Assembly: GCA_017381715.1 (NCBI GenBank)
Contig: JAFOBR010000013.1
Coordinates: 12,170-76,169, forward strand
Direction of reading: 5' to 3'
DNA from: Clostridia bacterium
Lineage (GTDB): Bacteria > Bacillota > Clostridia > Oscillospirales > CAG-382
DNA length: 64,000 bases
Shown here: in pieces, positions 7,355 to 54,372 of the stretch
Position numbering within the stretch: the stretch's first letter is position 1
Layout of the letters: the number at the start of each line of letters is the position of its first letter
Made by a program: the position numbers and the translations under genes
The notes under the pieces: model-generated
The model's input: only the letters and a program-made list of their open reading frames with translations
Databases searched by the model: none
Told to the model about the DNA's origin: nothing

Positions 7355-10246
7355 TTAAATTTGATTTCCGTCAGCGTCGAGCTTGATAAAGTCCTCAGCG
7401 CCGATAGTGTAGGAATTGCCGTCAACTTCAACGGTGGCTGCATTAAGGTCGTAGTTGATTATGAAGGAAATTCCGTTGCTGTAAGTTACCTTAACAACGT
7501 CATATTCGTCATCAAGGAACTGGTGATCAACGATATTCTCAGTCTTAACGTCTGCCAAAGCTTCGTTAAGTTCATTATAGGTTGTAACCATATCGTTAAG
7601 CCAGATGTTGTAACGAACGGAGTAGTAACCGGATACTTCGTACCAAGCGTTAAGTTTCTTAAGCTCGGAAGTGTTTTCCATAGCGAGTACGAAATAGGGG
7701 TTTGCGCCGTTTTCGATAGTTTTAAGTACGGTATAGCGGTAGTCACCTGCAAGGTTGATAGCTTCGCCGGTGTATTCGATATAGCCGTGAAGAACCATTC
7801 CGAGGAAAGGAACGCTGGTTGCGGAGTACTTGTAACCGGAGTCATCAAGAGCGATATTAACGATATCGGTAACATAGGGGAACGCATAAGCATTACCGCC
7901 GCTGATCATTACCTTGCCGTTATCTTCCTTTATCTGAGCAAAAAGCTTGGTGATAAGGGTCTTGTTGTCTTCGCGGTTGTAAGGTTCATCTTCATCAAAG
8001 TCGGAGGAAAGGGATTCGCCCAGTACGCCGACAGAAATGCTGCCTACATTGTAATCCTTGTAGTCATCCCAAGAGTTGGAATAGAACTTGTTCATTACAC
8101 TTGCAGAGATAATACCCATACCGGATCTGTCATATCCCTGGTAAAGTGCGCTGTAATACTGATGTCTTGCATAACGATCGTTAATAGTCTTTGCAAGATC
8201 GTCAGACTGAGAGAAGCCATCGAACCATCTGTCGTTATGAGCATAAACAAAGTCAAAATCGGGATACAGAGTAGCGCCGCTGGACTTTGCATACTCGATA
8301 AGCTTCTTAAAGCCTTCTTCGCCGCCGATAACTTTTTCAACCTTAACGCCATTGGGAACGGTATCACCGATACCGCCGTCCTGCCAGCCCATAAGTCTGA
8401 GCTTAACGTTGGAAATATCTGCGTCTTCGCCGAGAAGTTCAAGCATTTCGATTATCTTCTCAAAGCTTGCAAGAGAGTACATCTTATTAATGGGAACACC
8501 CATGAAGGAAGAAGATGCCTCAAGTGCGCAAAGGGTTTCGACATAGAGAGGAATATCTTTATGGGTTGTATCTTTGTCAATAGCAGTAAGAACGCCCTTA
8601 TTCTTGAGATACTGACGATAAATGTTTGCCATACCGGCAACGGAGGATTCTTCATCATTAAGAAGGAACACTCTGATCTTGTAATCCTTGGTGTACTTAC
8701 GGTCACATTCAACGGTCCAGGAAGAAGAGGAGCCGGCGGAAAGACCTGCATCAAGAGAAATGGTATCGGAAGGACGGGGGTTGATCGTACCGTAGCAAGA
8801 TACGAACATGTGAGTAGCACCGCCGTTTTCGATAGTAAGGTTAACCAGAGATTCACCTTCTTCAACGATTGCGAAGTAACCATTCTTGAGATACTTGGTA
8901 GTTTCTACCACTACCTCATTACCGTCTTCATCATATTCGGTGGTCTTAATCTTCTCTGTATAAGAGTTGTTCTTGGTCTCGATTATACCGAAAACAGGAA
9001 GTCTTACAGCCTGCTTGTTGGAGCCGCTGATTTCGCTGTAGGCATAGTCCTGACCGTAGATCTTGCTGGTATTCTTGAACTGACTGCCCATAATATCAGC
9101 AAAATTGATTATTGTACCGGAACCATCAGCAGAGAAAACGTAACCTTCGTTAGAAACAACGTTACCTGTACCTGCATAAGGCAGAATGCTGATGTTCTTC
9201 AAAGAATAAACGGAAGAGTCGAAACGAACGTTACCCATGTTACAACGGATAGAGAGTCCGTCTGCATCCAGCTTGTATTCCAGAGCGAGTTTGAACTGTG
9301 CGGGAGCTGCGTCCTTGTTTACATATTCAACTTCGTCGTGGTCGATCTGGAGCTGTTCAAGAGAGTAATCGGTATACATCTTCAACCAGCCTTCAAGAGT
9401 CTTAAGCTCCTGAACGGAGATTGCAGGTTCACAAACAGCTATAGGGAACTGTTCGCAGATAGGATACTTTTTCTTGTATTCTTCTTTACTCTTATCGGAA
9501 ATGTGAGGATCGTTTACGTCCTTAATAGTATAGAAGGACTCAAAACGGTTAGCGGGTCTGGTTTCTGTGCAGTTGGTTCTGATCTGCTCAAGCAAAGCCT
9601 GGAATTTTTCAAGCTTAATAACACGAGGAACCATATATGTGTTTTCTGCACGACCAAGCTTATATTCAACACGGATACCGTTTGCGATCTTCTTAACGGT
9701 AATCTGATTGTTTTTCGCAGAATCCTTATAAGAAGTCATTTCGTTTTCGGTGTTGCTGGAGCTCTTATCAACGTACTTTATAATAATCTGAGAATAAAGC
9801 AACTGCTTGATAGAGTCGGTAGAAGCTTGCTTGGAGGGGTTGGTACTTGCACCCGCATTATAGGGGTTGGAGCACCAGTAAGACTGATAGTAATAAATAC
9901 CGTCTGCACCGTATTCGAATTTGCCGTCTACGGGGTCTTTACAGCGGAGAACGATAACTTCACCGGTAAGCTTATCTACATACATTGCGTAAGGAATAGC
10001 TACGGTAGGTTCAAGATAAAGTTCAAGTGCATCAAGAGAGGTGTTACCAAGAATTCTTGATTTTACGCTGGAAAAGCTTACAGACATATATGCGGGACCT
10101 TTAGTATCCCAGATATCAACGTCTTTGCTTTCTTCCTCATCCCCTTCCGCAGCAAATGCGAAAAGACCGGATACGGAAGAAATTACAGGCAGGCAGAGCA
10201 GCAAGCAGAGTGCAAATGCCAGTATTGATTTGAAGAATTTACTCAT
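7355..10246 (-). CDS. Large secreted protein of unknown function, possibly DUF5696-like with a glycoside-hydrolase-like barrel region
   Basis: The protein is 963 aa with signal peptide MSKFFKSILAFALCLLLCLPVISSVSGLFAFA. The C-terminal third (...LRLMGWQDGGIGDTVP...ATLYPDFDFVY...SISVGVLGESL...) alternates beta-strand and helix like a TIM-barrel hydrolase. The family assignment is from memory and is not verified. Confidence 0.75.
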   Translation of the reverse strand: MSKFFKSILAFALCLLLCLPVISSVSGLFAFAAEGDEEESKDVDIWDTKGPAYMSVSFSSVKSRILGNTSLDALELYLEPTVAIPYAMYVDKLTGEVIVLRCKDPVDGKFEYGADGIYYYQSYWCSNPYNAGASTNPSKQASTDSIKQLLYSQIIIKYVDKSSSNTENEMTSYKDSAKNNQITVKKIANGIRVEYKLGRAENTYMVPRVIKLEKFQALLEQIRTNCTETRPANRFESFYTIKDVNDPHISDKSKEEYKKKYPICEQFPIAVCEPAISVQELKTLEGWLKMYTDYSLEQLQIDHDEVEYVNKDAAPAQFKLALEYKLDADGLSIRCNMGNVRFDSSVYSLKNISILPYAGTGNVVSNEGYVFSADGSGTIINFADIMGSQFKNTSKIYGQDYAYSEISGSNKQAVRLPVFGIIETKNNSYTEKIKTTEYDEDGNEVVVETTKYLKNGYFAIVEEGESLVNLTIENGGATHMFVSCYGTINPRPSDTISLDAGLSAGSSSSWTVECDRKYTKDYKIRVFLLNDEESSVAGMANIYRQYLKNKGVLTAIDKDTTHKDIPLYVETLCALEASSSFMGVPINKMYSLASFEKIIEMLELLGEDADISNVKLRLMGWQDGGIGDTVPNGVKVEKVIGGEEGFKKLIEYAKSSGATLYPDFDFVYAHNDRWFDGFSQSDDLAKTINDRYARHQYYSALYQGYDRSGMGIISASVMNKFYSNSWDDYKDYNVGSISVGVLGESLSSDFDEDEPYNREDNKTLITKLFAQIKEDNGKVMISGGNAYAFPYVTDIVNIALDDSGYKYSATSVPFLGMVLHGYIEYTGEAINLAGDYRYTVLKTIENGANPYFVLAMENTSELKKLNAWYEVSGYYSVRYNIWLNDMVTTYNELNEALADVKTENIVDHQFLDDEYDVVKVTYSNGISFIINYDLNAATVEVDGNSYTIGAEDFIKLDADGNQI

Positions 10247-10261
10247 ATTGCTACTCCTTTC

Positions 10262-12421
10262 TTATGACCATCTGTATGACAGCTCTGCGTAGATATTGTA
10301 GAAGAAGGTAAATACTCTTCCAAGCAAGCTGGTGAACAGAACGGCTACGAACATTACAAACATCATAAAGATGATTGTTGCAACAGTGATAATAATATTT
10401 TTAAACAGACCGTAATCGTGGATTACCATCATACCGAAGAACCAGAGCAGTGCTGTCCAGCCCCAAGCAATAGTCTCGATCATAGTAAGGATACCCTGTT
10501 CGCTCAAAGTAACGAAGTTGGATACCATAACTGTGGGAAGAACGAGCATTACAACGGGAAGCAAAGAATAGCAGGTTGCAATGTAAACGTCGGCAAGGCT
10601 GCCTTCACCGTCAAACAAAGTGGTAAGACACCAGTTGGAAACGGTAAGCAAAACTACGGGAAGCACGATGGAGCTTATCTGAATAACGTAGTTAACGCCG
10701 GTTCCTTCATATTTATTATAAAGGAAGCCTCTACCTACAGACTGGTAAACGAATGTGAACACAGTAAGAAGCAGAATAATGGTAGCGCCTCGTACAGAAC
10801 CGCGTTTTTCGTGCTTGAGGTCCCAGAAGCCGTCAAAGGGATGTACTATAACGTGGAAGCCATAGCAAACCTCTTCGTACCACTTGCGCTTTTCGGAATA
10901 CTTAAGACCGGCAGCATTAACCTTGTTAACCCACTTAGCAAACATCAAAACAGCAACAAGAACTACTACGATAATAAGAGCAAGTATCCAAAGGTTGGAT
11001 TCCATCCAATCCTTACGGTAGTGCTGATATGCTTCGGAATAGCTTTCCTGATCGTATGCGTACTTGTAGTACTGCATTGCGGTAATGTAGTCGCCTTCAC
11101 GATACTTTGCGTCACCGATTGCGATATACGCCTGGTCAAAGTTGTTGTTTCTCTGAAGAATACCCATGTAGTAGTCAACAGAAGCGGCATAGTCACCGTC
11201 TTCAATAGACTGTACAGCGGATATAAGCAAATCACCATACTCGGTGCGCTTGTAAATAGTGATGGAGTTGGTACTCTCATCAAGGAGAAGCATATAGGAA
11301 CCCTGGTAATCCATTGCGGTAAGACGCTGGATATTACCAAACTGATCACCCATATCACCGAAAGCAAACAGTAAGTTACCGTTGCTGTCATAAGTAAATA
11401 CGCGGCTACGCTTCTGGTCGATGATGGACCAGGTATTTGCTTCACCGAGAGCAACGTCTACGATAGTAGAGTTACCGGTTACGGTGTAATCTGTGCTGTT
11501 AGTAGAGGTAACGGTAACTTCACCGGACGGCGGATGGAAACCGTTTCTGTTAAGAACGTCACTTCCCTTGGGGTTGAGCTTCTTAATAGGAACCTGGGTA
11601 GTATCTGCACTCTGAGTTGCATATACAAATCCGTCTGCGTCGATAGTGATGTTATTGTACTCGATAGAAACAACAGATGCACTTGCGTCTATCTGAGCCT
11701 GAGTCTGGAAGTTTCTCCAGAACATATCCCAAGCATTTGCCTGCTGGGTAATAGCACCTACGAATCCGTTGAAGGAACCATCACGGTTAAGAGAAATAAT
11801 ACCGTAGTTGGTAGCCTTACCTACAACGTAAATACGTCCTGCAGAGTCAACTGCAACTGCGGAAGGCTTGTAAACGGAGTTTTCGGGCATAACTTCGGAA
11901 ACGGGTTCGTGAACGATATCTCTGAAGTTACCAAGCTTATCGAAAATAACGATACGGGATTTTTCGGTATCTGCAACGTAGATTTCTGTATCGGTTGCAA
12001 ATACGCCTTCGGGTGAAGCCAAAGTATCGGGAACACCCTGGTCATTTACGAATTCCTTAATGATAAGGTGGAGACGATACTGTTCATCAAGAATTACTAT
12101 ACGGCTGTTGCCGGTATCGGCAATGTATACGTAATTGAGATCGTCTACAAAAACATCCTTAGGTGTTGCAAGAGCACCGAAATCCTCGGCAGAATATTTA
12201 GCAGAGGCAGGATTGGATTCATTAAGAGATGCGAGCAAAGAAGCGGTAGTAATCTGCTTATAGGGAACGTAAACATCGGGGCTTTCCTGCATGAAAGCGT
12301 CTATATCATAAGTATAAGTGGTATAGGGAACGCTTGCGTTTGCAGTAATCGGAAGAGTGAATGCGCCTATAAGAAGGAAGCAGACACAAAAGAGGAGAGA
12401 TTTTGTAAGTATTCTTTTCAT
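10262..12421 (-). CDS. Signal peptide + NHL-repeat beta-propeller + TPR-like segment + C-terminal Yip1-type polytopic membrane domain
   Basis: The protein is 719 aa. NHL-like repeats include VYIADTGNSRIVILD, IYVADTEKSRIVIFD and GRIYVVGKATNYGIISLNRDG. A TPR-like segment reads ...GDAKYREGDYITAMQYYKYAYD.... A TM helix follows, then a ~230-aa domain with five TM helices resembling Yip1/DUF1282. Confidence 0.85.
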   Translation of the reverse strand: MKRILTKSLLFCVCFLLIGAFTLPITANASVPYTTYTYDIDAFMQESPDVYVPYKQITTASLLASLNESNPASAKYSAEDFGALATPKDVFVDDLNYVYIADTGNSRIVILDEQYRLHLIIKEFVNDQGVPDTLASPEGVFATDTEIYVADTEKSRIVIFDKLGNFRDIVHEPVSEVMPENSVYKPSAVAVDSAGRIYVVGKATNYGIISLNRDGSFNGFVGAITQQANAWDMFWRNFQTQAQIDASASVVSIEYNNITIDADGFVYATQSADTTQVPIKKLNPKGSDVLNRNGFHPPSGEVTVTSTNSTDYTVTGNSTIVDVALGEANTWSIIDQKRSRVFTYDSNGNLLFAFGDMGDQFGNIQRLTAMDYQGSYMLLLDESTNSITIYKRTEYGDLLISAVQSIEDGDYAASVDYYMGILQRNNNFDQAYIAIGDAKYREGDYITAMQYYKYAYDQESYSEAYQHYRKDWMESNLWILALIIVVVLVAVLMFAKWVNKVNAAGLKYSEKRKWYEEVCYGFHVIVHPFDGFWDLKHEKRGSVRGATIILLLTVFTFVYQSVGRGFLYNKYEGTGVNYVIQISSIVLPVVLLTVSNWCLTTLFDGEGSLADVYIATCYSLLPVVMLVLPTVMVSNFVTLSEQGILTMIETIAWGWTALLWFFGMMVIHDYGLFKNIIITVATIIFMMFVMFVAVLFTSLLGRVFTFFYNIYAELSYRWS

Positions 12422-14317: not shown

Positions 14318-17300
14318 TTATTTATCATCTGCTACGGAACCAAGTTCTTTAAAGGTTTCCGTGGTAGGAAGATCGAACTCCTGACGCTTACGTGTAAGCT
14401 CTGCGTTGATATCGTCGAGGTAAGAACGCATTTTTTCTACAGGGTTGTCATCGTTGTTATAAGCGCCCAAGAATGCGAAGTTGGTGAAACGGCCGATAAT
14501 GTAAGAACCGGGATATTCGGGAGTACACTCAACTGCGTTAAACTGTGCTACCAGGTTATCAAGCTCGTCCTTAGACCAGCTCATCTTCTGAAGCGCTTCA
14601 ATATTTGCGGTGGAGTATTTAGCAGAAGGACCGAGCAGAGCAATCTTTTCGTTACCGAAGGTAGACTGAACATCTGCGCTGGACCACCACTGCATAAATG
14701 TCCAAGCGGAAAGTGCATTTTTCTCGTTTGCACCTCTCATCATAATAAGAGAGGAAACAGCTGCGATAGTGCTGTTATTGATAGTTTCGGTCTCGGGATC
14801 GAAAGTACCGGGCAGAGGAGTGAATTCCCACAAACCGGAAATTTCGGGAGCAAAGATTACCATAGTATTATATGTAGAGGTGTAATCTGCTATTGCCAAA
14901 GGCATAATACCCTGACGGAAACGGGTAGCAATACTGTAAGAATAGGGGAAGTCGTAATCGGTGAACAGTTCGCAAACCTTCTTGAAGGTTTCAAGCATTG
15001 TGTTGCTTCCCAGGTTGATCTCCATACCGTCGATCTTGGGACGAACTTTACCGCTTGCATCGGTGTATACCCAGCCCATTTCAACCAGTTCGTCCATGGT
15101 ATACTGAGTAAGAAGTTGATTAAGATATGCATCATATTCTTCATCGGTATAAGTTACGAACAGGTCGTCATTCTGCTGATATGCCCAAATGAAGGAGCCG
15201 CCGGTACCCTGAGGGAAGCCGATATCAAGAGAATTGGACTGCATGGTGTAAATGAGGTCATAGAAATCTTCCCAAGTGTTGGGAACTTCCAAGCCGAGTT
15301 CTACAAACAAGTCTTTTCTGTAGAACATCATAGAGAAGGACATGGTATCTGCAATACCGTAAGCTTCACCATAGAGAGTGAAAGGAACCATTGCAGCAGG
15401 AGCGAAACGCTTTGTTACTTCGTCAAACGTTGCGATATCATCAATAAATTCACCATATACGGGGTGATCAGCCCACTTGGAAAGATCATTGAAGTTATAA
15501 CCGTGAGCTTCGCTGTTGAGAGAGTAAACAGCAGAACGGATAGCAAAGTTAACAGGGTCACTCTGACCTGCGCCCATATATACGTCGGGACCGGTACCTG
15601 CAAGAGTTGCGGGAAGCAAAGTGCCACCTACAACCAGCTTAACGGTTACGGGGATGCTGTAACGTTCGTTGAAGGAATCGTCTACCAGGTTACGGATAAT
15701 AGTAGCTTCTTCACGGGAGTTAGCGGTCCATACTTCGATAGCACATTCCTGAAGAGCTTCATCGGAGTAATCCTTTTCTACGAGAGAACCGATAGAGTTA
15801 TAATCTGCAGAGAAGGAACCGAAGAACTTAAGGATTTCTGCCCACATGGAAGCAAAGAATCCTGCTTCTGCCTTGGGAGCCTTTGCGTCGACAGCCTGGA
15901 ATGCTACATAGTCAAGAAGCAGAGGCTGAGAAGTGTTATCGGAAAGCCAAGTACCGAGGGTTGCGGTATATTCCTTAAGAGTGTTCATATAGCCGGCGAT
16001 TTCGGAGGGGTGTTTACCCATACGCTCAACTATAACTGCAACCTTCTTAAGAGTACCGGTCTGGTCGCCGGCACTACCGGAAATAAGGATAATCTCTTCA
16101 GCGATCTGATTAAGATTTTCTGCCTCTTCCTTAAAGCCCTTGAGTACATCGGGAATAAGCTTCTGGAACTTATAGTCACGAGTATCATCAGGTTCTGCAC
16201 CGGTGATCATGAGTATTTTTCTGTAGTATTCGTTAAGGTTGGAAAGAGAATCGGAAACGCGGCCGAGAATATCGGACATATCACCGAGAACAACCTGGAA
16301 ACGAATGGTATGTATACCCTCTTCAAGATAGAACTTGAAATTGGTTACGCCGTTGTTAAGAACATCGGTACGCCAAGAAGTGGAGTAGTTAAATCTGAGG
16401 TTCTGTGCTTCTTCAAAGGGAAGCTCGCCATCGATAAGAATCTTTCTGGAAACGAATGAGCCCATAAACTCTTCCTGCTTGGAACGAGGAATTATGGAAT
16501 AGAATCCGGATTCTTTAACATCGATAGTGTACTCTATCCACTGGCCTACGTACTGCCACTTATTAGAACCGATACTGTTGTAACGGATAAGAGTGGAATC
16601 CTGAGGTTCGGAAACAGAGGACTTACGATCGTTTATCTGATACAGAGTACGGTCGGAAGTAAGAACGGGATACTCAGCCTGAATCTTGAGAGTTTCGCCG
16701 GTGTAGTCCTTTGCGCCAGCTGCGGTATGCTTAGCGATGTATTCATCGTAAGTCAAAGTATCGGAAGCAGCTTTAAGAACTATCTTCTTGATAGCCATAG
16801 GCTCGGTAATAGTCTCAATATTAAGGGTGTGAGCACCTTCGGTGAGATAATATTTGAGAGGGTTGGGATAGTATCCGCTGGTGTCGTAAGCAAAGGATCC
16901 GGTCCACATACCGTAGATCTCTTTGGTGGGCTTTGCTTCGTTGCCATTGGTATCATACGGGAAGAGACGATCGCTGTCGGGAGACATATTCGCCTGATCG
17001 CGCACGAAATCAAGGAAGAAATCGCTTACGGAATCGAAGTAGGATTTAGACTTATCATCTTCGATCTTGGTGTAAACATCCTTCCACGCACGGGTGAATG
17101 TAAGAGAACGGGATTCCTTGAAGGAAACCGATTCGTCAAAGTAAATAATACGTTCGATATCTGCAGATTTACCGACAGCGGCAACCGCACCGGAAGCATC
17201 GAGTACTTCGATATCGCCGGTCCAGTATTCGATATAAACAGAATACATAGCCGTTTCGGGAACGTCGATATCAAACACGATCTTACCGTCATCGCCCATC

Positions 17301-17620
17301 AAAAGGACGGTGCCTTCAGCGCCCTCGTAACCGTCTTTGAGGTTAACGGTGGCAGTGCTGTCTTCCTTGTAAGCAGAAAGATCGATCACAATCTCTTTGT
17401 CCGCATTCTTTACGTCCTTGTAGATTTCAAGATAACTCGAATAGGATACCGAAGTAAGAAGTTTTTCGATCTCACTAAGCGAGGTGCGAACCAAAGAATC
17501 CGAACCGTCGACAGATTCCACTTTTGCATAAGCGCCGAGAAGAGCATAATCGCCCAACAGCATCACGCAAACAAGCAGGACCGCCATCAGTTTGGAAAAG
17601 CAGTTCTTAAACCTGGTCAT
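14318..17620 (-). CDS. Giant (~1100 aa) extracellular solute-binding protein with two N-terminal beta-rich (carbohydrate-binding-like) modules
   Basis: ATG 17620 follows GGGAGGAA; the track start at 17770 adds 50 implausible residues. The signal peptide is MTRFKNCFSKLMAVLLVCVMLLGDYALLGAYA. Two related modules end in ...EGAHTLNIETITEPMAIKKIVL and ...EGIHTIRFQVVLG. The C-terminal ~450 aa look like a family-1 sugar SBP (...PDVYMGAGQSDPVNFAIR..., ...FRQGIMPLAIADY...). Confidence 0.85.
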   Translation of the reverse strand: MTRFKNCFSKLMAVLLVCVMLLGDYALLGAYAKVESVDGSDSLVRTSLSEIEKLLTSVSYSSYLEIYKDVKNADKEIVIDLSAYKEDSTATVNLKDGYEGAEGTVLLMGDDGKIVFDIDVPETAMYSVYIEYWTGDIEVLDASGAVAAVGKSADIERIIYFDESVSFKESRSLTFTRAWKDVYTKIEDDKSKSYFDSVSDFFLDFVRDQANMSPDSDRLFPYDTNGNEAKPTKEIYGMWTGSFAYDTSGYYPNPLKYYLTEGAHTLNIETITEPMAIKKIVLKAASDTLTYDEYIAKHTAAGAKDYTGETLKIQAEYPVLTSDRTLYQINDRKSSVSEPQDSTLIRYNSIGSNKWQYVGQWIEYTIDVKESGFYSIIPRSKQEEFMGSFVSRKILIDGELPFEEAQNLRFNYSTSWRTDVLNNGVTNFKFYLEEGIHTIRFQVVLGDMSDILGRVSDSLSNLNEYYRKILMITGAEPDDTRDYKFQKLIPDVLKGFKEEAENLNQIAEEIILISGSAGDQTGTLKKVAVIVERMGKHPSEIAGYMNTLKEYTATLGTWLSDNTSQPLLLDYVAFQAVDAKAPKAEAGFFASMWAEILKFFGSFSADYNSIGSLVEKDYSDEALQECAIEVWTANSREEATIIRNLVDDSFNERYSIPVTVKLVVGGTLLPATLAGTGPDVYMGAGQSDPVNFAIRSAVYSLNSEAHGYNFNDLSKWADHPVYGEFIDDIATFDEVTKRFAPAAMVPFTLYGEAYGIADTMSFSMMFYRKDLFVELGLEVPNTWEDFYDLIYTMQSNSLDIGFPQGTGGSFIWAYQQNDDLFVTYTDEEYDAYLNQLLTQYTMDELVEMGWVYTDASGKVRPKIDGMEINLGSNTMLETFKKVCELFTDYDFPYSYSIATRFRQGIMPLAIADYTSTYNTMVIFAPEISGLWEFTPLPGTFDPETETINNSTIAAVSSLIMMRGANEKNALSAWTFMQWWSSADVQSTFGNEKIALLGPSAKYSTANIEALQKMSWSKDELDNLVAQFNAVECTPEYPGSYIIGRFTNFAFLGAYNNDDNPVEKMRSYLDDINAELTRKRQEFDLPTTETFKELGSVADDK

Positions 17621-17652
17621 TGAAAAGTTCCTCCCAAATAAATACTCAGAAA

Positions 17653-17674
17653 AATGCGTACTTCTATACGCATT
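17653..17674 (-). promoter_or_regulatory. 5'-leader stem-loop between the promoter and the SBP RBS
   Basis: AATGCGTA (17653-17660) pairs with TACGCATT (17667-17674), a perfect 8-bp stem. On the minus strand UUUUUC follows it. It starts about 10 nt after the predicted TSS, so it could be an mRNA-stabilising 5' hairpin or a weak attenuator. Confidence 0.35.
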
Positions 17675-17690
17675 ATATTCGATACTATGA

Positions 17691-17719
17691 ATAATACCAC
17701 TACTCCCCCATTTTGTCAA
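17691..17719 (-). promoter_or_regulatory. Sigma-A-type promoter of the 12-kb operon
   Basis: On the minus strand, TTGACA (17719-17714), a 17-nt spacer, then TATTAT (17696-17691). It lies about 70 nt upstream of ATG 17620. Confidence 0.5.
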
Positions 17720-17742
17720 TAGTGTATATATATGAAGGTTGT

Positions 17743-18079
17743 TTTTTGTGCGCTTTTTACCTATTTTCACTAACCGAAGAAACGCCGTTTTTAAATACTT
17801 AATATATATGTAATAAACTGCACAAAAATTTAAAGCCGTAAATTCGGGTACAATTTGATACAGCGTTCAAAATCGCGGATAGAAAAAGTTTCGCTTTCCC
17901 GCGAAATCCGTGGTTTTTTTCGGCGCACTTCTTTTTCGCCGCCTCATATATATGAAACTTTCGGTTAACAAATTGTAAACCAAAATTTCACATTCGACTT
18001 GATTGAACCGATAACGGCGTTTTTGTGCAAAATTTCGACATTTCAACGATTCGGTTCAATGTGCACCATGCACAAAAAC
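17743..18079. repeat. Cluster of short inverted repeats in the operon-upstream noncoding region
   Basis: TTTTTGTGC is at 17743-17751 and its complement GCACAAAAA at 17820-17828. GTTTTTGTGCA (18019-18029) has its perfect complement at 18069-18079. Interleaved with that pair, ATTGAACCGA (18002-18011) has its complement TCGGTTCAAT at 18051-18060. All were read directly from the sequence. Confidence 0.8.
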
Positions 18080-18180
18080 CGACTCACAATTTCGGCACTT
18101 TGCTACCCATCACAAAACATTTGTTCCGCTGTTTTTGGCTAAAATGTTTTGACATATTATATAAAAAACACCGTTCGCCA

Positions 18181-18213
18181 CAAAAAAAGAAGGAAGGCGA
18201 ACCTTCCTTCTTC
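18181..18213 (-). terminator. Rho-independent terminator after the VanY-like gene
   Basis: On the minus strand, GAAGGAAGG-ttcg-CCTTCCTTC is followed by TTTTTTTG. Confidence 0.8.
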
Positions 18214-18227
18214 ATAATGATTTGTGT

Positions 18228-19190
18228 TTAACCGGTAACGGTAATTATAAACCCATCGTAATTATTACCGGAGATGAGGTAGGCGGAATCATTGGGCACG
18301 TTAATACCGGATGTAAGTCCGTCTTCCATAGGCTGGTAATACACTTCGTAGGATTTATTCTGAACGTCGATAATCAACGGCTCTTCGGGAGTGTATTGCT
18401 TGAGCAATTCCAGATACTCTTCGAGACACAAATTGTTTTTGTACATAAAGTACGCATGGCAAACGCCCACATAACGATATATACCTTTGTGTGCAGCGTG
18501 TCCTGAAACAGCATCCTTCCCTTCGGGATATCTGAGGATGAATCCGTAGGAATAGCAATTATCAAGAAACCAAGCGAAGGTTCCTTCCCCCATGCTTCCA
18601 ACCTTGGAAGGCCATGCCATAAGTCTGACAGAATTACCAATATGGTAATCACTTGCGCCTGCAGCATCTGTGCCTTCTTTTTCCAATGCTTTTTCGTAAG
18701 AAAGATAAGCATCGTGAACAAGAACACCGGAGTTGAGACCGGATTCGGCATAGAAAGCTTCACACATCGCCTTGAGAGATTTAGCGGCAGTTGTGTTAAG
18801 GTACAATCCCGATCCGCTGAAGGAAACGTTACTGTCTTTCAGCGAAGCATAAAGATTAACCATATCTGTTTCTGCGGGAAAAGCATAGCGGTTATCCGAA
18901 TTTACCAAAATAAGCAATCCGTTATTAACCTCTGAATTATCGACGGATGCGAGAGTGAATCTTGAAGTCTCACTCTCGTCACCGAGGAATCCGGAGTTTT
19001 CGTTATCCGGTTGCGAAGGAGCCGCAGAAGACGAATTACTATCTACAGGTCCAGAAGGATTCGGCTTTTTGAACAATCCGGAACCGAACACCATAAGTGC
19101 AACAACCAAAGCGACAACTACGCAGGCGACAATGGACAACAAATATACATACATGTATCCGTCGCCGGATGAGTACTTATCTCTTGACAT
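18228..19190 (-). CDS. Membrane-anchored VanY/M15B-like D,D-carboxypeptidase homolog with apparently degenerate metal-binding motifs
   Basis: The protein is 320 aa with an N-terminal TM anchor. ...GFILRYPEGKDAVSG....YRYVG is the M15B C-terminal signature, but the expected SxHxxGxAxD reads SDYHIGNSVR and the expected EPWH reads HKGI. The RBS GGAGG is present, and the gene starts 28 nt after the nifJ stop. Confidence 0.75.
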   Translation of the reverse strand: MSRDKYSSGDGYMYVYLLSIVACVVVALVVALMVFGSGLFKKPNPSGPVDSNSSSAAPSQPDNENSGFLGDESETSRFTLASVDNSEVNNGLLILVNSDNRYAFPAETDMVNLYASLKDSNVSFSGSGLYLNTTAAKSLKAMCEAFYAESGLNSGVLVHDAYLSYEKALEKEGTDAAGASDYHIGNSVRLMAWPSKVGSMGEGTFAWFLDNCYSYGFILRYPEGKDAVSGHAAHKGIYRYVGVCHAYFMYKNNLCLEEYLELLKQYTPEEPLIIDVQNKSYEVYYQPMEDGLTSGINVPNDSAYLISGNNYDGFIITVTG

Positions 19191-19218
19191 AACAAACCTC
19201 CGTTAATTTAGGATTAAA

Positions 19219-22200
19219 CTATTTCTGTTCTGCGAGTTCCTTGTAAGTTTCGTACTTGATAGCAGCCTGTTCCTTTGCCTTTTCGAAGAGTTCTTTAGCT
19301 CTTTCGGGGAACGCCTGAACAAGACGGCTGTATCTGGTCTCGCTGCTGATAAAGTCAATATAATCTGCGGTGGGAGCCTTGGAATCCAATGTGAAGGGAT
19401 TCTTTCCGTCTGCCTTAAGGAGAGGATTGTAACGGAACATCTGCCAGTAGCCTGCGTCAACCGCACGCTTCATTTCGTTCTGGCAGTTAGCCATACCGCC
19501 CTTAACACCATGCATTTCGCAAGGAGCGTAGCCGATGATAAGAGAAGGTCCGGGATAAGCTTCTGCTTCAAGGATAGCCTTGAGAGTCTGATTCTTATCT
19601 GCGCCCATAGCGATCTGTGCAACGTAAACGTAACCGTAAGACATTGCGATAGCTGCAAGGTTCTTCTTGCCGATAGCCTTACCGGCTGCTGCAAACTGAG
19701 CTACCTGACCGATCTGAGAAGCCTTGGAAGCCTGTCCGCCGGTGTTGGAGTATACTTCGGTATCGAATACCATAATGTTTACGTCTTCGCCGGAAGCGAT
19801 AACGTGGTCAAGACCGCCGAAGCCGATATCGTATGCCCAGCCGTCACCACCAAAGATCCATACGGATTTCTTTGCAAGGTAATCCTTGTCTGCGAGAATC
19901 TTCTTGGATGCTTCGCAGCCTGCTGCGGACCATTTTTCAAGAAGCTCTACGAGAGCTGCGGTAGCAGCTTCATTTGCCTTACCGTCGTTAACGGTATTGA
20001 GATAATTATCGATCACTGCCTGATCAGCTTCGTTTTCAGCCTTAAGCTCCTTAACGTAACCGATAAGACGCTCACGAATGGTCTTCTGACCGAGGTAGAT
20101 ACCCAAGCCGTGTTCAGCGTTGTCTTCGAACAAGCTGTTAGCCCAAGCGGGACCGCGGCCGCTGTCTCTGTTTACGGTGTAAGGCGTAGCAGGTGCGGAG
20201 CCGCCCCAGATAGAAGAACATCCGGTAGCGTTGGATATATACATTCTTTCACCGAAGAGCTGGGTAATAAGACGTGCGTAAGAGGTTTCTGCACAGCCTG
20301 CGCAGGATCCGGAGAACTCGAGGAGAGGCTGCTCGAACTGGCTGCCCTTAAGAGTGTTTGCTGCAAAAGGAAGTTCCTTCTTGCTTACCTTATCTACACA
20401 GTAGTTCCAAGCTTCTGCCTGCTCGGACTGGGATTCCTGACTCTTCATAACGAGCGCCTTTTCCTTTGCGGGACAAGCGGAAACGCAGAGAGTACAGCCC
20501 ATACAGTCAAGAGGACTTACAGCCATGGTAAATACGTAGTTTTCACATCCCTTGCCTACCATCTTCTTGGTCTTTACGGAAGCGGGTGCATTTGCAGCCT
20601 CTTCTTCGTTAAGAGCGTAAGGACGGATGGTTGCATGAGGACAAACGAAAGCACACTGGTTACACTGGATACAGTTTTCGGGGATCCATTCGGGTACGTC
20701 TACTGCAACGCCGCGCTTTTCATAAGCTGCAGAACCCTGAGGGAATGTACCGTCTACGTAATCAACGAATGCGCTTACGGGGAGAGAATCGCCGTTCATC
20801 TTACCTACGGGAAGAACAACGCTTTCTACAAACTTAACAACATCGGGTCTGCCGGAAACTGCAGAAGCGGAAGCGGCGGATGCGGAAACTGTCTTCCAGG
20901 ATTCGGGAACTTCGATCTTGACAAGAGCTTCAACACCTGCGTCAATAGCCTTGTAGTTCATTTCAACTACAGCTTCGCCCTTCTTCATATAGGACTTCTT
21001 AGCCATATACTTCATATACTCTACTGCGTTTTCAATAGGCATAATGTTTGCGAGTGCGAAGAAAGCAGCCTGGAGAATGGTATTGGTTCTCTTGCCCATA
21101 CCGATCTCACGAGCCTTATCTATTGCGTTAACGGTGTAGAACTTGATATCGTTATCAGCGATATAACGCTTAACCTCTGCGGGAAGATGCTCTTCCAGCT
21201 CTTCTGCGGACCACTGGCAGTTAAGAAGGAAGGTTCCGCCGGGCTTAACGTCGTTTACGATCTTATAACCCTTGGTAATATAGCTGGGGTTATGGCAGGC
21301 GACGAAGTTTGCCTTTGTAATATAATAAGGAGATTTAATAGGCTTATCACCGAAGCGGAGGTGAGAAATGGTAACACCGCCGGTCTTCTTGGAGTCATAC
21401 TGGAAGTATGCCTGAATGAACTTTTCGGTATGGTCGCCTATAATCTTGATAGAGTTCTTGTTTGCGCCAACGGTACCGTCGCCGCCCAGGCCCCAGAATT
21501 TGCAGGAAATAGTTCCTTCGGGAGCTGTATCGGGGCAAGTCTCTTCGGGAAGAGAGAGACCGGTAACGTCATCTACGATACCGAGAGTAAAGCTGTTCTT
21601 GGGCTCTTCAGCATCAAGATTCTTAAAGGTTGCAAAGATAACGGAAGGAGGAGTATCCTTGCTTCCGAGACCGTATCTACCGCCAACGATAGTGCCGGTA
21701 AAGCCGTTCTGACGGAGAGCTGCCACAACGTCAAGGTAAAGGGGTTCGCCGAGAGAACCGGGTTCCTTGGTGCGGTCAAGCACTGCTATCTTCTTTGCGG
21801 TTGCAGGAATAGCGGAAATAAGATGCTTTGCGGAGAAAGGTCTGTAAAGTCTTACTTTGATAAGACCAACTTTTTCACCCTTTGCGGTAAGGTAATCGAT
21901 AACTTCTTCAGCTACGTCGCATACGGAGCCCATAGCAACGATAACCTTTTCTGCATCGGGAGCGCCGTAATAGTTAAAGAGCTTGTAATCGGTACCGATC
22001 TTTTCGTTTACCTTATTCATATATTCTTCCACTACTGCGGGGAAAGCTTCGTAATAAGAGTTACAAGCTTCTCTGTGCTGGAAGAAGATATCACCGTTTT
22101 CTGCGGAACCGCGGAGAACGGGATGTGCGGGATTGAGAGATCTTGCACGGAAAGCCGCAACAGCGTCTTTATCAAGCATTTCTTCAAGATCCTTGTAATC

Positions 22201-22758
22201 CCATTCTTCAATCTTCTGAATCTCGTGAGAGGTTCTGAAGCCGTCGAAATAGTTAAGAACGGGAACTCTGCCCTTTATAGCGGAAAGATGTGCAACAGCG
22301 GCAAGATCCATAACTTCCTGAGGGTTGGATTCAGCCATCATTGCGAAGCCTGTCTGACGGCAGGCATATACGTCGGAATGGTCACCGAAAATGTTGAGTG
22401 CGTGGGTAGCTACGCAACGTGCGGAGCAGTGGATAACGCAAGGCAACAATTCACCGGCGATCTTATACATATTGGGGATCATGAGAAGCAGACCCTGGGA
22501 AGCAGTGAAAGTGGTAGTAAGAGCACCTGCTGCAAGAGAACCGTGAACGGTACCTGCGGCACCTGCTTCGGACTGCATTTCAACAACCTTAACCTCATCA
22601 CCGAAGACATTCTTCTGACCTGATGCGGACCAAGCGTCTGTGAGTTCAGCCATTACGCTGGAAGGGGTAATGGGATAAATAGCGGCAACTTCGGTAAACG
22701 CATACGCTACGTGAGCGGCAGCTGTATTACCGTCCATTGACCTTTTGTTTCTGGACAT
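19219..22758 (-). CDS. nifJ: Pyruvate:ferredoxin (flavodoxin) oxidoreductase
   Basis: The protein is 1179 aa, with N-terminus ...MDGNTAAAHVAYAFTEVAAIYPITPSS.... It has two ferredoxin-type CxxCxxCxxxCP motifs (CIQCNQCAFVCP, CMGCTLCVSACP) and a TPP-binding GGDGWAYDIG motif. Confidence 0.97.
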   Translation of the reverse strand: MSRNKRSMDGNTAAAHVAYAFTEVAAIYPITPSSVMAELTDAWSASGQKNVFGDEVKVVEMQSEAGAAGTVHGSLAAGALTTTFTASQGLLLMIPNMYKIAGELLPCVIHCSARCVATHALNIFGDHSDVYACRQTGFAMMAESNPQEVMDLAAVAHLSAIKGRVPVLNYFDGFRTSHEIQKIEEWDYKDLEEMLDKDAVAAFRARSLNPAHPVLRGSAENGDIFFQHREACNSYYEAFPAVVEEYMNKVNEKIGTDYKLFNYYGAPDAEKVIVAMGSVCDVAEEVIDYLTAKGEKVGLIKVRLYRPFSAKHLISAIPATAKKIAVLDRTKEPGSLGEPLYLDVVAALRQNGFTGTIVGGRYGLGSKDTPPSVIFATFKNLDAEEPKNSFTLGIVDDVTGLSLPEETCPDTAPEGTISCKFWGLGGDGTVGANKNSIKIIGDHTEKFIQAYFQYDSKKTGGVTISHLRFGDKPIKSPYYITKANFVACHNPSYITKGYKIVNDVKPGGTFLLNCQWSAEELEEHLPAEVKRYIADNDIKFYTVNAIDKAREIGMGKRTNTILQAAFFALANIMPIENAVEYMKYMAKKSYMKKGEAVVEMNYKAIDAGVEALVKIEVPESWKTVSASAASASAVSGRPDVVKFVESVVLPVGKMNGDSLPVSAFVDYVDGTFPQGSAAYEKRGVAVDVPEWIPENCIQCNQCAFVCPHATIRPYALNEEEAANAPASVKTKKMVGKGCENYVFTMAVSPLDCMGCTLCVSACPAKEKALVMKSQESQSEQAEAWNYCVDKVSKKELPFAANTLKGSQFEQPLLEFSGSCAGCAETSYARLITQLFGERMYISNATGCSSIWGGSAPATPYTVNRDSGRGPAWANSLFEDNAEHGLGIYLGQKTIRERLIGYVKELKAENEADQAVIDNYLNTVNDGKANEAATAALVELLEKWSAAGCEASKKILADKDYLAKKSVWIFGGDGWAYDIGFGGLDHVIASGEDVNIMVFDTEVYSNTGGQASKASQIGQVAQFAAAGKAIGKKNLAAIAMSYGYVYVAQIAMGADKNQTLKAILEAEAYPGPSLIIGYAPCEMHGVKGGMANCQNEMKRAVDAGYWQMFRYNPLLKADGKNPFTLDSKAPTADYIDFISSETRYSRLVQAFPERAKELFEKAKEQAAIKYETYKELAEQK

Positions 22759-27596: not shown

Positions 27597-30227
27597 ATGA
27601 ACGGTTACAAAAACTCAATAGACAAAGACCTGGTGGAAATGACACTTATGGGCGATGAAAACGCATACGAAGAGCTGGTAACGCGCCACGAAAGAAGCGT
27701 ACACGGCACGGCGTATAAGATAACGGGAAACAAATACTCAGCGGAGGACGCTTCGCAGGATGCATTTGTTGCCGCTTGGACAAAGCTTGACACCCTTAAA
27801 GAAAGGGAAAAGTTTGGTTCGTGGATCTGTGCTATTGCCAAAAACTGCGCTTTTCGTATTGCCGACCATTACCGCTGTGCCGTTTCCGATATAAGCTTTG
27901 ACGCACTGGAATACGCTTTATATAACAAAAACGAGGACGAGAAATATCAAAACAGCCTTGACCTTGCGTTTATAAACGAGTATGACCAAAGCGAGAAATT
28001 GCGGGATGCGGTTGAAGCTTTAACCGAAAAGATACGCGAAACCGTTAAATTGCATTATTTTGAAGAGTTATCTGTTGCCGAGATCGCCCAAAAACTTTCC
28101 CTACCGGTGGGGACTGTTAAGTGGCGTCTTTCGGAGGGGCGAAAGCAACTCAGAAAGGAATACGGTATAATGGATAAAGAATACAATGAAAACGAAACTA
28201 TCGTTGAACGTGTAATGAGGCAGGTTGAGGCACTTAAACTACTTGCAAAACAAAACGACAAAACCGAATTTCAAAAACAATACAAAAAAGTTCTGGCAGA
28301 CGTAGAAAGTCTTAAGGATTCTAAAGAAAAATCCCACGCACTTGCAGACGTGCTTATGCACGGTGTCTGGTGGATGGAGGGCGAAAAAAGCGAAGAATTG
28401 TACGAACGCATAAAAGCCGAGGCGTTAGCGGGACACAACGATGACGTTATGCAATCCGTGATATCGAGAGAAGCCGGTAAATACAGCGGAAAAGAACGGG
28501 TTGACTATATGATCAACATTCAAGTTCCGTTTTTGGAAGAACACAATTTCCCTCTTTCTCTGGGATACACTTGGTTCTGGGCAGGTTGGTCTTACGCCTG
28601 CGAAAACGAAATCGAAAATGCGATTGTCTGCTTTAACAAGGTTTTGGAGGTCTTAAAGCCTTCCGACGTATATTACGCCAACGCATTGTCAGCTAAAGAA
28701 TGTGAAAAAATCAGAGAGAATCATAGAAACAAGCAAAGAAAACAGTTTGGCGGTGGTGCGACGGGAGAGGTATATAAGCTTATAAACGGCAGACTGCTCT
28801 TCTGGTCCCAGCCGGGATATTCCTTTGGAAACCCCAGCGACGGTAAAAGTATATTCTGGAACGCGGGACGGTGCGACTGCGTGATATACGATGAGAATAT
28901 GCTCCCTGGGGACGTATACGTTTGCTCCGATAAAAAGAGTACACTGGAGTACCGCAAAAACGGCATTACCGTAGAAACAAAGGCGGGGATTTTTGAAAAC
29001 TGCTCTCTTTGGGTTTTTACGGGGGAAAGATACGGGCTCACAAGCTGTGAAACCTACATTTGCCCCGGAGTGGGAATTGTAAAACAACACTCTGTAAGAT
29101 ACGGCACTGAGACAACTTGGGAACTCAGTACGTACGCGCTAAAAGGCGGAAACGGTCTTATACCCTTTGAAAAGGGCAACCGCTGGGAATACACGCCCCT
29201 GCCTACCGATGGACTTGATGTTGAGGCAAACAGCTATTTTGAGGTACTATCCGCCGAAAAGAATACCTTTGTTGTTACGGCGGGTCACACTTATCAGCTT
29301 TTGGGACTCGGTTCCCCCACTACATGGCAAGGCGCCATGAACAGCTTTACACAAGGATATTATGTAAACGACGGACAGCTAAAAGCGAAAATGATCGACG
29401 TTGAGGAGTACATCCGCCTTGCGGAAAAGTATGCAAAAACGAAACGAGAAAAGGTTATAACCGCAGTTTCTGCCGATGTTATGCGAAGAATTCAAAGGTG
29501 TTATCCCTATATAAATCCCGATTACACCGAAAAAGGCAAATGGAACTTTTTCAGCGCACAATCCGTTTCAAAAAGTGCTGACGGAACACTATGTATTTCC
29601 AATTCCCGAAAAGTATCAAACTTCGGCTTCACCTGGAAGGGCAATATGTGGAATATCGGCACAGAGGGATACAAGGTGCTGTACGGCAATTTCCTTTTGG
29701 AGATACAGCAAGCCATAGGCTGTGTTTGGTCCGACGAATGGATACCCGGATACAAAAAGACCTCCCCCTCCCGTGCGCAAAAGGGTGCGAAATATATCCT
29801 TGAAGTTTTGGATGACGAAACCGTTATTACCCCCTGCGGAACCTTTGAAAATTGCCGCCACGTAACATACAAACTTTCCGGCATGGATAAACACGGCGCC
29901 CAGTTCCAAGGCGGTAAAAAGGATATATGGTATGCGCAGGGAATCGGAATAGTGAAATTCCAAACCGATTACTGGTATGACCGTAACCTTTCCTGCATCT
30001 GGGAGCTGAAAGAGTACCGCAAAACGGGAGAAGGTTACTACCCTATCGTTGACGGTGCATACAGAAAATATGCTCCCGACACCATAGGTGACGGCTGGAA
30101 CGCTTCCGTTGAGCACACCTATGATAGCGACGAAAATGAAACTATAATTTTATTTAACGTGCTGGGCACGAGAAACAGAGCGGAATACGAAGCAGATAAT
30201 GACTGCAACGATTCCGATTATGATTGA
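27597..30227 (+). CDS. ECF (sigma-70 family) sigma factor fused to a ~685-aa soluble C-terminal extension
   Basis: Residues 1-190 read as sigma region 2 (...AYEELVTRHERSVHGTAYKITGN...DASQDAFVAAW...FGSWICAIAKNCAFRIADHYR) and region 4 (...LHYFEELSVAEIAQKLSLPVGTVKWRLSEGRKQLRKEY). The remaining residues are a helical, TPR-like stretch plus two related beta-rich modules. I see no hydrophobic TM segment. Confidence 0.85.
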   Translation: MNGYKNSIDKDLVEMTLMGDENAYEELVTRHERSVHGTAYKITGNKYSAEDASQDAFVAAWTKLDTLKEREKFGSWICAIAKNCAFRIADHYRCAVSDISFDALEYALYNKNEDEKYQNSLDLAFINEYDQSEKLRDAVEALTEKIRETVKLHYFEELSVAEIAQKLSLPVGTVKWRLSEGRKQLRKEYGIMDKEYNENETIVERVMRQVEALKLLAKQNDKTEFQKQYKKVLADVESLKDSKEKSHALADVLMHGVWWMEGEKSEELYERIKAEALAGHNDDVMQSVISREAGKYSGKERVDYMINIQVPFLEEHNFPLSLGYTWFWAGWSYACENEIENAIVCFNKVLEVLKPSDVYYANALSAKECEKIRENHRNKQRKQFGGGATGEVYKLINGRLLFWSQPGYSFGNPSDGKSIFWNAGRCDCVIYDENMLPGDVYVCSDKKSTLEYRKNGITVETKAGIFENCSLWVFTGERYGLTSCETYICPGVGIVKQHSVRYGTETTWELSTYALKGGNGLIPFEKGNRWEYTPLPTDGLDVEANSYFEVLSAEKNTFVVTAGHTYQLLGLGSPTTWQGAMNSFTQGYYVNDGQLKAKMIDVEEYIRLAEKYAKTKREKVITAVSADVMRRIQRCYPYINPDYTEKGKWNFFSAQSVSKSADGTLCISNSRKVSNFGFTWKGNMWNIGTEGYKVLYGNFLLEIQQAIGCVWSDEWIPGYKKTSPSRAQKGAKYILEVLDDETVITPCGTFENCRHVTYKLSGMDKHGAQFQGGKKDIWYAQGIGIVKFQTDYWYDRNLSCIWELKEYRKTGEGYYPIVDGAYRKYAPDTIGDGWNASVEHTYDSDENETIILFNVLGTRNRAEYEADNDCNDSDYD

Positions 30228-51575: not shown

Positions 51576-52121
51576 TTACCGTCCTCCTTCACAGTAGTTT
51601 TTAAGCTTTTCCAACGCACGCTGATATTTTTTGCGCACCAATACCGTGTTCTTTTCGATTACGTTTGCTATCTCCGAATGAGAAAGACCTGCGTAAATAC
51701 GAAGCTTTACTATCAGCTTTTCTTCATCGGAAAGAGTGTTCAGCGCATCCCGAAGCATAATTTGTTGAAGCGTTTGGGGCTCAAAAGCACTTTGAGCTTT
51801 TTCTTTTTCCGAAATTTCTTCCAAAGATAAAGTGTGCTTTTTTTCTTTGACCTTGTCTACAGCGCTGTTTCTTGTTACCTTCAATACTCACGCTTTAGGG
51901 TTTGTTCCCTTTTTATAGGTATGTGAAAGGCGGAGGATCCGTATCATCGTATCCTGCAGCACGTCTTCTGCTTCCCCAAAATCTCCCGTTATCTGGTATG
52001 CAACGGAAAGTATCATACGCCCGTATTCATTATAAACACGTTCAAGTGCTTTTTTGTTTCCCGAAGCGATTTCCGTAATGGCAATATCGCAAGGGTCTGC
52101 TAAATTCAAAAACAGGATCAT
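51576..52121 (-). pseudogene. ECF sigma factor interrupted by an in-frame TGA at the conserved Trp codon
   Basis: Track ORFs 51888..52121 (region 2: ...EAEDVLQDTMIRILR...GTNPKA*) and 51576..51884 (...VLKVTRNSAVDKVK...; region 4: ...LSHSEIANVIEKNTVLVRKKYQRALEKL) are in the same frame. Both ends are 0 mod 3, and only TGA 51888-51890 separates them. Confidence 0.8.
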
Positions 52122-52239
52122 ATAAACACCTCACTTTCCGGTTTCATACTATATAACCGAAGATTTTGTTAAAACGTGACATTAAACAGCAAAATTTTTC
52201 CATATTGCAAGAAGAGAATATCCGATATCATATTAACAC

Positions 52240-52267
52240 AAAAGACTGTGTTTTACCACAGTCTTTT
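52240..52267 (-). terminator. Terminator after the PepSY anti-sigma gene
   Basis: AAAAGACTGTG (52240-52250) pairs with CACAGTCTTTT (52257-52267). On the minus strand UUUUGUGUU follows the stem. Confidence 0.7.
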
Positions 52268-52282
52268 ATTTTTCATATTAAC

Positions 52283-54311: not shown

Positions 54312-54372
54312 CTGTAATCCTCCTTTCATAACATTAACGCGGAAATCGCCGGTTTTATTGCAAACAAAAAAT

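Follow-up and report, generated by a model that had tools for sequence, protein, structure and literature searches.

In Gram-positive bacteria, LexA (DinR) recognises SOS or Cheo boxes of the form GAAC-N4-GTTC/T, and the central N4 of the Cheo box follows R-N-R-Y (R, purine; Y, pyrimidine), as in CGAACRNRYGTTYC. AraR-type regulons are marked by in-phase operator pairs and looping upstream of sugar ATP-binding cassette (ABC) operons; the AraR operator reads ATTTGTAC-GTACAAAT, and GalR/DeoR-type repressors also loop. For clostridia, a LexA search motif (GAACnnnnGTTT) containing the 12-bp dyad GAAC-N4-GTT(C/T) has been described, together with the recA operator of Clostridium difficile (AGAACAAATGTTTGTAG, CAAGAGAACAAATGTTTGTAGA) (PMC4234289). 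Here we describe a 607-bp spacer (positions 17621-18227) upstream of a predicted sugar-type (carbohydrate-type) ABC transporter operon in a 64-kb stretch of a Clostridia genome (contig JAFOBR010000013.1), hereafter called the window. The spacer contains a box of the LexA type, TGTGCA-type dyads and two interleaved perfect inverted repeats; the latter had been read, from the letters of this genome only, as an H-type pseudoknot, as two mutually exclusive RNA hairpins or as overlapping dyad operators (the sequence-only reading).

The spacer lies between the stop codon of a VanY-like gene and the operon ATG at 17620. All genes surrounding it are on the minus strand, to which the features described below also belong unless stated otherwise. 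Homologous loci were collected with a one-genome-per-species scan, in which the first 400 residues of the operon's lead protein served as the query and which returned 41 loci, and with a metagenome scan, which added 9 further loci, all distant. The loci came from uncultured Clostridia, Eubacteriales or Oscillospiraceae in ruminant, rabbit, human and bioreactor samples, and identity of the lead protein across them fell from 96% to about 35%. In this comparison the region looks like dedicated cis-regulatory DNA, as had been proposed for it, and the alternative of overlapping dyad operators in DNA comes close to the comparative data. We tentatively favour, at somewhat less than even confidence, the reading that the spacer is an extended upstream control region of the operon: a repressor-controlled distal operator/promoter module, possibly SOS-linked. 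The conserved parts of this module, namely the box, two dyads (O1 and O2) and an AT-rich third dyad, occur in collinear order about 400 bp upstream of the operon promoter, P1.

The SOS-type box and associated dyads

The box, GAACAAATGTTT (18115-18126), runs into an invariant TGT, and the whole element (18112-18126) reads GAAC-N4-GTTTTGT. Exactly one copy of GAAC-N4-GTTT was present 460-552 nt before the ATG in 46/46 loci with enough upstream DNA, and these orthologous loci keep it though the lead protein drops to about 35% identity. When both strands of 455 kb of fetched DNA plus the window were searched, the pattern occurred 47 times, 46 of which were this site. It was retained with the operon in L020, L027 and L048 despite different upstream genes. 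Box composition in 38 loci was as follows: GAAC in 36 (AAAC in 2), GTTT in 38 and GTTTTG in 38, always extended to GTTTTGT in the orthologues. The N4 was A+T-rich and most commonly AAAT, with a purine at N1 in 37/38, a purine at N3 in 32/38 and a pyrimidine at N4 in 35/38, the complete R-N-R-Y being found in 30/38; the preceding base was A or C in 34/38, and the commonest form of the box was (A)GAACAAATGTTTTGTAG.

GAACAAATGTTT fits the clostridial LexA motif. Its 12-bp dyad recurs unchanged as the core of the recA operator of C. difficile, to which the box is nearly equal in full. By sequence definition it is a Firmicutes SOS box, with LexA as its putative ligand. The likeness to the Gram-positive LexA sites extends over the 12-bp dyad, the A+T-rich R-N-R-Y centre, the preceding A or C and an adjoining -35-like TTG. 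Unlike such sites, the box in this window stands 506 bp from the nearest start codon, whereas the cited surveys searched up to 350 bp upstream; here no DNA-repair gene or open reading frame (ORF) lies downstream, the outer base is T and never C, and the TGT extension is invariant. The last T of the box and the TGT together make a -35-like TTGTGA (18110-18115), and TTGTnn follows the box in all loci; the invariant T would be explicable if it and the TGT supplied the TTG of this -35-like element.

Other assignments of the box were tried and rejected. The ArsR/SmtB 12-2-12 operator has the consensus TGAACA-N2-TGTTCA, and it was ruled out as T stood before GAACA in 1/38 loci and the right half was always TGTTTT, not TGTTCA. 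For an extracytoplasmic function (ECF) or sigma-I-type promoter, with GAAC as -35 and CGTA/CGAA as -10, the spacing of about 26 nt was wrong, and the sigma/RsgI-like gene pair of the window is preceded by a different sequence. An RNA hairpin made of the box and its flanks was also rejected; the flanks pair inconsistently in an anchored alignment, and four loci embed the box in the terminator of the upstream gene. In these four (L026, L034, L035 and L036; about 460-507 nt before the ATG), the box is part of a longer hairpin with a T-run and the upstream gene is without a separate terminator, so that the same palindrome would double as one.

O2 (18060-18074) has the form TGTGCA-N3-TGCACA (here TGTGCATGGTGCACA) and is the sole match in the window. 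On one side of O2 there is a conserved T-run (to 18079) and on the other TTGAA (18055-18059); its distance from the box is +52 or +53 in 21/38 loci and +42 in 7/38. In 7 related lineages the A-rich half-site of O1 and O2 are both shifted by exactly 10 bp, one helical turn. O1 (18088-18106), about three helical turns from O2, is a degenerate dyad with the A-rich motif GGTAGCAAAGTGCCGAAATT, in a register that is fixed in class 1 loci. Its right half at +29 from the box reads TGCCGAA here and TGACGAA, TGTAGAA or CGTAAAA elsewhere, and it contains a weak -10-like GAAATT at +33. Because L014 and L016 carry at the O1 position (+20 to +34) TGTGCAAAGTGTAGA and TGTGCAAAATGCAGA, that is, TGTGCA-N3-TG(T/C)AGA, we interpret the A-rich motif as what is left of a second, degenerate dyad copy, of which it would form the right half.

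The 192 O2 arm positions in 32 lineages comprised 135 Watson-Crick pairs, 12 G-T, 7 A-C and 38 other mismatches. Five or six of the six consensus positions were kept by the left half, TGTGCA, in 23/32 loci and by the right half, TGCACA, in 24/32. Since the halves are conserved as sequence and decay independently (38 non-pairing versus 19 wobble-type positions), O2 is taken as a protein-DNA site and not an RNA stem. Both O1 and O2 have the properties expected of sites for a dimeric regulator, the binding of which is predicted. Across 36 spacers, TTGTGCA, TTTGTGC and TTTTGTG were the most enriched 7-mers and were seen in both orientations, TTGTGCA occurring 44 times against 5.7 expected, and TTTTGTG was still enriched outside the module (25 versus 8.9 expected). 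The presence of the motif in both orientations favours recognition of double-stranded DNA.

These dyads resemble the paired operators of AraR/GalR/DeoR-type repressors in several respects: the half-sites are similar to TTTGTnC...GnACAAA, several copies in both orientations are spread over a few hundred bp in front of an ABC operon of the carbohydrate type, and the spacings are about 2-3 helical turns, with a 10-bp indel that keeps helical phase. They differ in that 3 bp separate half-sites of the form TGTGCA, in place of TGTAC-GTACA, no regulator gene is linked, and the sites are about 400 bp from the promoter. O2 and the third dyad were also compared with the Rex, CRP/FNR, NrdR, TnrA, CodY, Spo0A (0A box), DnaA-box and WalR motifs, and the spacing or the half-sites did not fit. 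A literature search for a TGTGCA/TGCACA operator was uninformative.

The third dyad, dyad 3 (17950-17993), consists of ATGTGAAATTTT, 20 nt and AAAGTTTCATAT, giving about 18 pairs in this genome. Of its alignment cells, 94.8% pair; two pairs show compensatory changes, and on the operon strand there are 9 G-U cells versus 1 A-C cell. Dyad 3 could be an RNA hairpin or a wide palindromic site, and the G-U excess hints at the former. Inverted repeats of 9-15 bp were found at +115 to +180 from the box in many distant loci. Further on, an A-run, a short G+C hairpin and a T-run (17889-17920) form a terminator-like element on both strands, in which the block AAAAAACC is conserved; in several deep lineages this hairpin and dyad 3 are collinear. 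The proposal of a stable RNA hairpin at the dyad 3 position in all lineages was rejected, as the hairpins of 43 loci averaged -7.0 kcal/mol versus -5.9 for shuffles and were no better overall. A conserved terminator defining a small RNA was set aside for weak enrichment: a hairpin plus T-run of -5 kcal/mol or lower at +170 to +290 was found in 13/43 loci (30%) versus 13.5% of shuffles.

In its layout the region is comparable to intergenic small RNA genes: elements resembling a promoter are followed by a 5' dyad, then by a long AT-rich hairpin in which compensatory changes occur and, about 190 nt later, by an A-run/hairpin/U-run. It is unlike them in that the terminator is weak and found in about 30% of lineages and the hairpins are overall no stabler than shuffles. 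A conserved small ORF or type I toxin was likewise rejected, no ORF being common to the spacers of 46 loci on either strand.

The interleaved perfect repeats

The pairings given in the sequence-only reading are exact. Arm A, ATTGAACCGA (18002-18011), complements A', TCGGTTCAAT (18051-18060), and arm B, GTTTTTGTGCA (18019-18029), complements B', TGCACAAAAAC (18069-18079), with 39 nt between the arms in both cases; the order is A, B, A', B', and the two stems, of 10 and 11 bp, are thus interleaved. A second pair closer to the operon, TTTTTGTGC (17743-17751) and GCACAAAAA (17820-17828), also proved exact, and direct repeats of the CAAAATTTC type are present in the spacer. Counting arms of at least 10 nt with gaps of 3-60 nt, we found four perfect inverted repeats in the spacer and 17 in the whole window. 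Among 3000 dinucleotide-preserving shuffles of the region, the probability of at least one repeat was 0.097 and that of at least two was 0.004; four repeats were reached in none, and an interleaved pair in 0/3000. One of the four, at 18187-18212, is the terminator of the upstream VanY-like gene. Another, absent from the sequence-only reading, joins a third window-specific arm, CAAAACATTT (18142-18151), to AAATGTTTTG (18113-18122), the right half of the box, and this arm was found in none of seven relatives. The perfect repeats are real and non-random in this genome. Three of the eight near-matches to GTTTTTGTGCA in the window fall inside the spacer. A repeated element, either a miniature inverted-repeat transposable element (MITE) or a repetitive extragenic palindrome (REP), was rejected, for the motifs are not dispersed in the window. 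That the spacer is the largest noncoding stretch is plausible and not certain, since a region of about 800 bp (51620-52416) may rival it; only short ORFs (77-102 aa) are found in that region.

Comparison with the relatives revealed that each interleaved repeat is made up of one conserved arm and one lineage-specific arm. The partner arms A and B (18002-18029), confined to this genome and, in part, its two closest relatives, lie in an unconserved stretch of the close-relative alignments: L001 retains B, degenerate versions of it occur in L002, L003 and L007, and A was found in the window alone. A' and B', which overlap O2, coincide with blocks conserved as sequence, B' lying inside the invariant TTTTGTGCA and the start of A' being ATTGAA. 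Likewise, in the second pair the arm nearer the promoter does not vary among the 8/8 close loci, and the distal arm is present in the 5 closest only. As judged from the alignments, three conserved elements, namely the right half of the box, the T-run with the left O2 half, and the TTGAA block that follows O2, have each gained a perfectly complementary copy 19-39 nt away in this genome, and the perfect interleaved repeats exist because of these gained inverted copies. The copies are young and not a conserved structure; they may supply the same protein with additional half-sites or pair locally if transcribed. More generally, perfect inverted repeats may reach significance in a single genome and yet have been added, in one lineage, to conserved sites that are older; they are therefore poor evidence of RNA structure unless comparative support is at hand.

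A proposed distal promoter/operator and competing explanations

In the module that we favour, the box and dyads would constitute a repressor-controlled distal promoter/operator, P2. The invariant T and the TGT would provide its -35-like TTGTnn, a weak -10-like gAAAaT would follow 16-18 bp on, and O2 would be placed at or just after the start point. A candidate -10, nAnnnT, is found at +31 to +37 in about 75% of loci and in both spacing classes (gAAAaT, TAAAAT, TAGAAT). With the box occupied by a LexA-like repressor and the TGTGCA dyads by another dimeric regulator, P2 would be silent; when relieved, it would send a noncoding transcript toward the operon, either as a long leader or as an RNA of about 190 nt ending near 17889-17920. 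Two further copies of TTTTGTGC nearer P1 may allow cooperative binding or DNA looping, and the gained inverted copies would act as extra half-sites or local sequestering partners. The most specific form of this proposal is that an SOS-box-controlled noncoding transcript (a small RNA of about 190 nt or a leader of about 450 nt) upstream of the transporter operon is gated by a second, TGTGCA-N3-TGCACA-binding regulator and kept across an uncultured gut/rumen Oscillospiraceae-like Clostridia clade; we consider this unlikely. If true, it would couple the DNA-damage response to nutrient uptake. If the box were a working LexA operator, it would represent a non-repair, probably noncoding SOS target in abundant uncultured gut/rumen Clostridia, at a position (about -500) missed by regulon scans limited to -350 to +50. 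The TGTGCA-N3-TGCACA dyads, for their part, would define the operator for a regulator of a widely conserved transporter operon adjoining a pyruvate:ferredoxin oxidoreductase (PFOR) gene.

Besides the conservation of the box and the decay pattern of O2, the strict register, the narrow range of the distance from the box to P1 (368-425 bp) and the absence of a shared ORF count in favour of this module. Several observations speak against it. LexA sites usually lie in or beside the promoter of the gene that they control, within about 350 bp of its start codon; here 460-552 bp separate the box from the ATG and 368-425 bp from the -35 of P1, and a LexA site 506 bp away from a start codon is atypical. 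The outer base is always T, with GTTC in 0/46 orthologues, which needs an extra constraint, and a different protein could bind. SOS control of a sugar-type transporter would have no obvious logic; no other intergenic GAAC-N4-GTTY was found in the window, and no SOS genes (recA, lexA, uvrB) in the window or the fetched loci. The P2 -10 is weak, many loci having TAAAAA or TAGAAA without the final T, and its positional signal is z of about 1.3-1.8. The exact 10-bp shift of O1 and O2 was probably a single ancestral event, so that the register lends weak support. Finally, the compensatory changes and the 9:1 ratio of G-U to A-C in dyad 3 fit an RNA hairpin, and part of the module may act as RNA.

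It is conceivable, if rather doubtful, that the same DNA sites serve a single protein other than LexA, in which case GAAC-N4-GTTTTGT and the TTTTGTGCA-type dyads would be operators of one unlinked dedicated regulator (GntR/AraR-like, ArsR/SmtB-like or ROK-type) acting on P1 by cooperative binding or looping. The right half of the box, GTTTTGTG(C)A, has the same core as the dyads and in several lineages runs directly into TGTGCA; GTTT is never replaced by GTTC, copies of TTTTGTG recur nearer P1, the TATATGCAnAC beside the P1 -35 resembles the right half of O2, and the distance from the box to P1 is held within the 368-425 bp given above. The looping operator pairs generally known from AraR-type control of sugar ABC operons would offer a precedent. 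However, an invariant GAAC combined with a variable N4 is the signature of the Gram-positive SOS box, the T of the ArsR/SmtB core precedes GAACA in the single locus noted above, and no candidate regulator gene is linked to the operon: as the sequence-only reading had stated for the adjacent genes, none was found, and this holds for the 64-kb window and the syntenic loci.

Two further explanations centre on the repeats themselves. In one of them, which we regard as quite unlikely, a minus-strand transcript would fold the interleaved stems into a pseudoknot or alternative hairpins and act as a riboswitch- or attenuator-like leader or as a small RNA. The A, B, A', B' order and the two perfect 10-11-bp stems would permit folding of that kind in this genome only, where the repeats far exceed chance; a 223-nt stretch has a folding z-score of -2.1 with a minimum free energy fold that uses the B'/B stem, a sigma-A-like promoter candidate lies upstream at 18156-18183, compensatory changes and a G-U bias on the minus strand accompany the retention of dyad 3, and beyond it, at 17889-17920, there is a hairpin resembling a terminator. 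In contrast to known leaders, the stems are not conserved. In an alignment of 8 orthologous sequences, stems A/A' and B/B' paired in 58.1% of cells versus 58.5% in shuffles (345/500 shuffles reached the observed value; helix A 49%, helix B 66%), and the covariation check that had been suggested, run on these upstream regions, gave a score of 0.107 versus 0.122 for shuffles, that is, no excess. RNAalifold retained none of the stems of the sequence-only reading and kept only O2 and dyad 3, of which the O2 halves decay independently and the hairpins at the dyad 3 position are hardly stabler than shuffles; the opposite strand folds equally well (z = -2.4), and the downstream terminators are weakly enriched. 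The Rfam search gave nothing at the gathering score across the window and only noise in 17400-18400 (E-values of at least 0.2). Moreover, the repeats (18002-18079) sit 320-395 nt upstream of the start implied by P1 and therefore outside the known 5' untranslated region (UTR); their transcription would depend on the activity of a promoter further upstream, either the candidate at 18156-18183 or P2. The pseudoknot or alternative-hairpin interpretation thus found no support. Very unlikely, in our estimation, is the view that the repeats have no function, having arisen by chance or neutrally in an AT-rich spacer of low complexity or being left over from local duplication. The partner arms are indeed young and lineage-specific, and the spacer is only about 77% identical to those of the nearest relatives versus 95-96% for the lead protein. 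But the shuffles rarely gave two perfect repeats and never an interleaved pair, every repeat contains a deeply conserved element, and three conserved elements each with a perfect complement within 19-39 nt are hard to credit to drift alone.

Promoters, hairpins and neighbouring genes

The operon promoter P1 (17691-17730) has a -35 TTGACA (17714-17719), 17 nt and a TG-extended -10 TATTAT (17691-17696). It is of the sigma-A type with 11/12 consensus matches plus the TG (TGgTATTAT), and lies about 70 nt before the ATG. P1 is invariant in close loci, and the pattern TATATGCAnAC, TTGACA, AAA ... TGnTAnTAT is found in all lineages, the conserved TATAT(G/A)CAnAC block touching the P1 -35. The two additional TTTTGTGC copies (17819-17829 and 17742-17753), which correspond to the second pair of the sequence-only reading, are in opposite orientation, and the one nearer the promoter is situated in A-tract, UP-element-like DNA. 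The spacer also has three copies of (C)ATATATAT(G) (17726-17735, 17799-17810 and 17944-17955), one of which touches the P1 -35; ATATATA was the most over-represented 7-mer in the 36 orthologous spacers (46 versus 5.6 expected).

A weak minus-strand TATAAT had been pointed out near 18150, and it is indeed present. The corresponding sigma-A-like promoter candidate (18156-18183) comprises TTGTGG (18178-18183), 16 nt and TATAAT (18156-18161), with a score of 8.2, and would start about 22 nt before the box. A universal sigma-A promoter upstream of the box was rejected: only about half of the loci have TAnnnT at 31-39 nt ahead of the box, and a terminator abuts the box in several of them all. The intrinsic terminator of the VanY-like gene (18186-18213) has a 12-bp stem and a T-run; related loci preserve the stem through compensatory changes, and in most loci a terminator is located 18-140 nt ahead of the box. 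Within the 5' UTR of the operon, TGCGTA, 6 nt and TACGCA followed by a U-run (17655-17672) form a hairpin about 30 nt before the ATG, which could be an attenuator or a stabilising stem-loop. Its stem is kept via G-U and compensatory changes in close relatives, and distant lineages have other hairpins there.

The lead gene of the operon encodes a product of 1100 aa without a Pfam match, which from its translation is probably a secreted solute-binding-like protein. It is followed by ABC permeases, a Yip1/NHL protein, a DUF5696 protein and two more permeases, and neither an ATPase gene nor a regulator gene is among the operon genes. Between the two permease pairs (7355-12421), a 963-aa DUF5696 protein and a 719-aa protein are encoded, the latter combining NHL/beta-propeller repeats with a C-terminal Yip1 membrane domain. 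On the other side of the spacer, the VanY-like gene (18228-19190) encodes a membrane-anchored protein with a weak match to the VanY Pfam family, and the PFOR gene precedes it. The order PFOR, VanY-like gene, spacer of about 500-600 bp, 1100-aa gene and permeases (14318-22758; L001-L040) is shared by nearly all loci, among which the binding protein is down to 45-60% identical and PFOR down to about 60%.

Two further loci of the window carry sigma factor genes. The plus strand (27597-30227) encodes an 876-aa protein that begins with a sigma factor of the ECF type (regions 2 and 4) and continues in a long C-terminal extension, for which there is a weak DUF3108-like match; such an architecture is unusual for a single chain. 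The minus strand at 52417-54329 carries the gene for a 198-aa sigma factor (regions 2 and 4) and, after it, the gene for a 439-aa RsgI-like anti-sigma factor; upstream of this pair is a GNAT acetyltransferase gene with its own promoter (TTGAAA, 17 nt, TATAAT).

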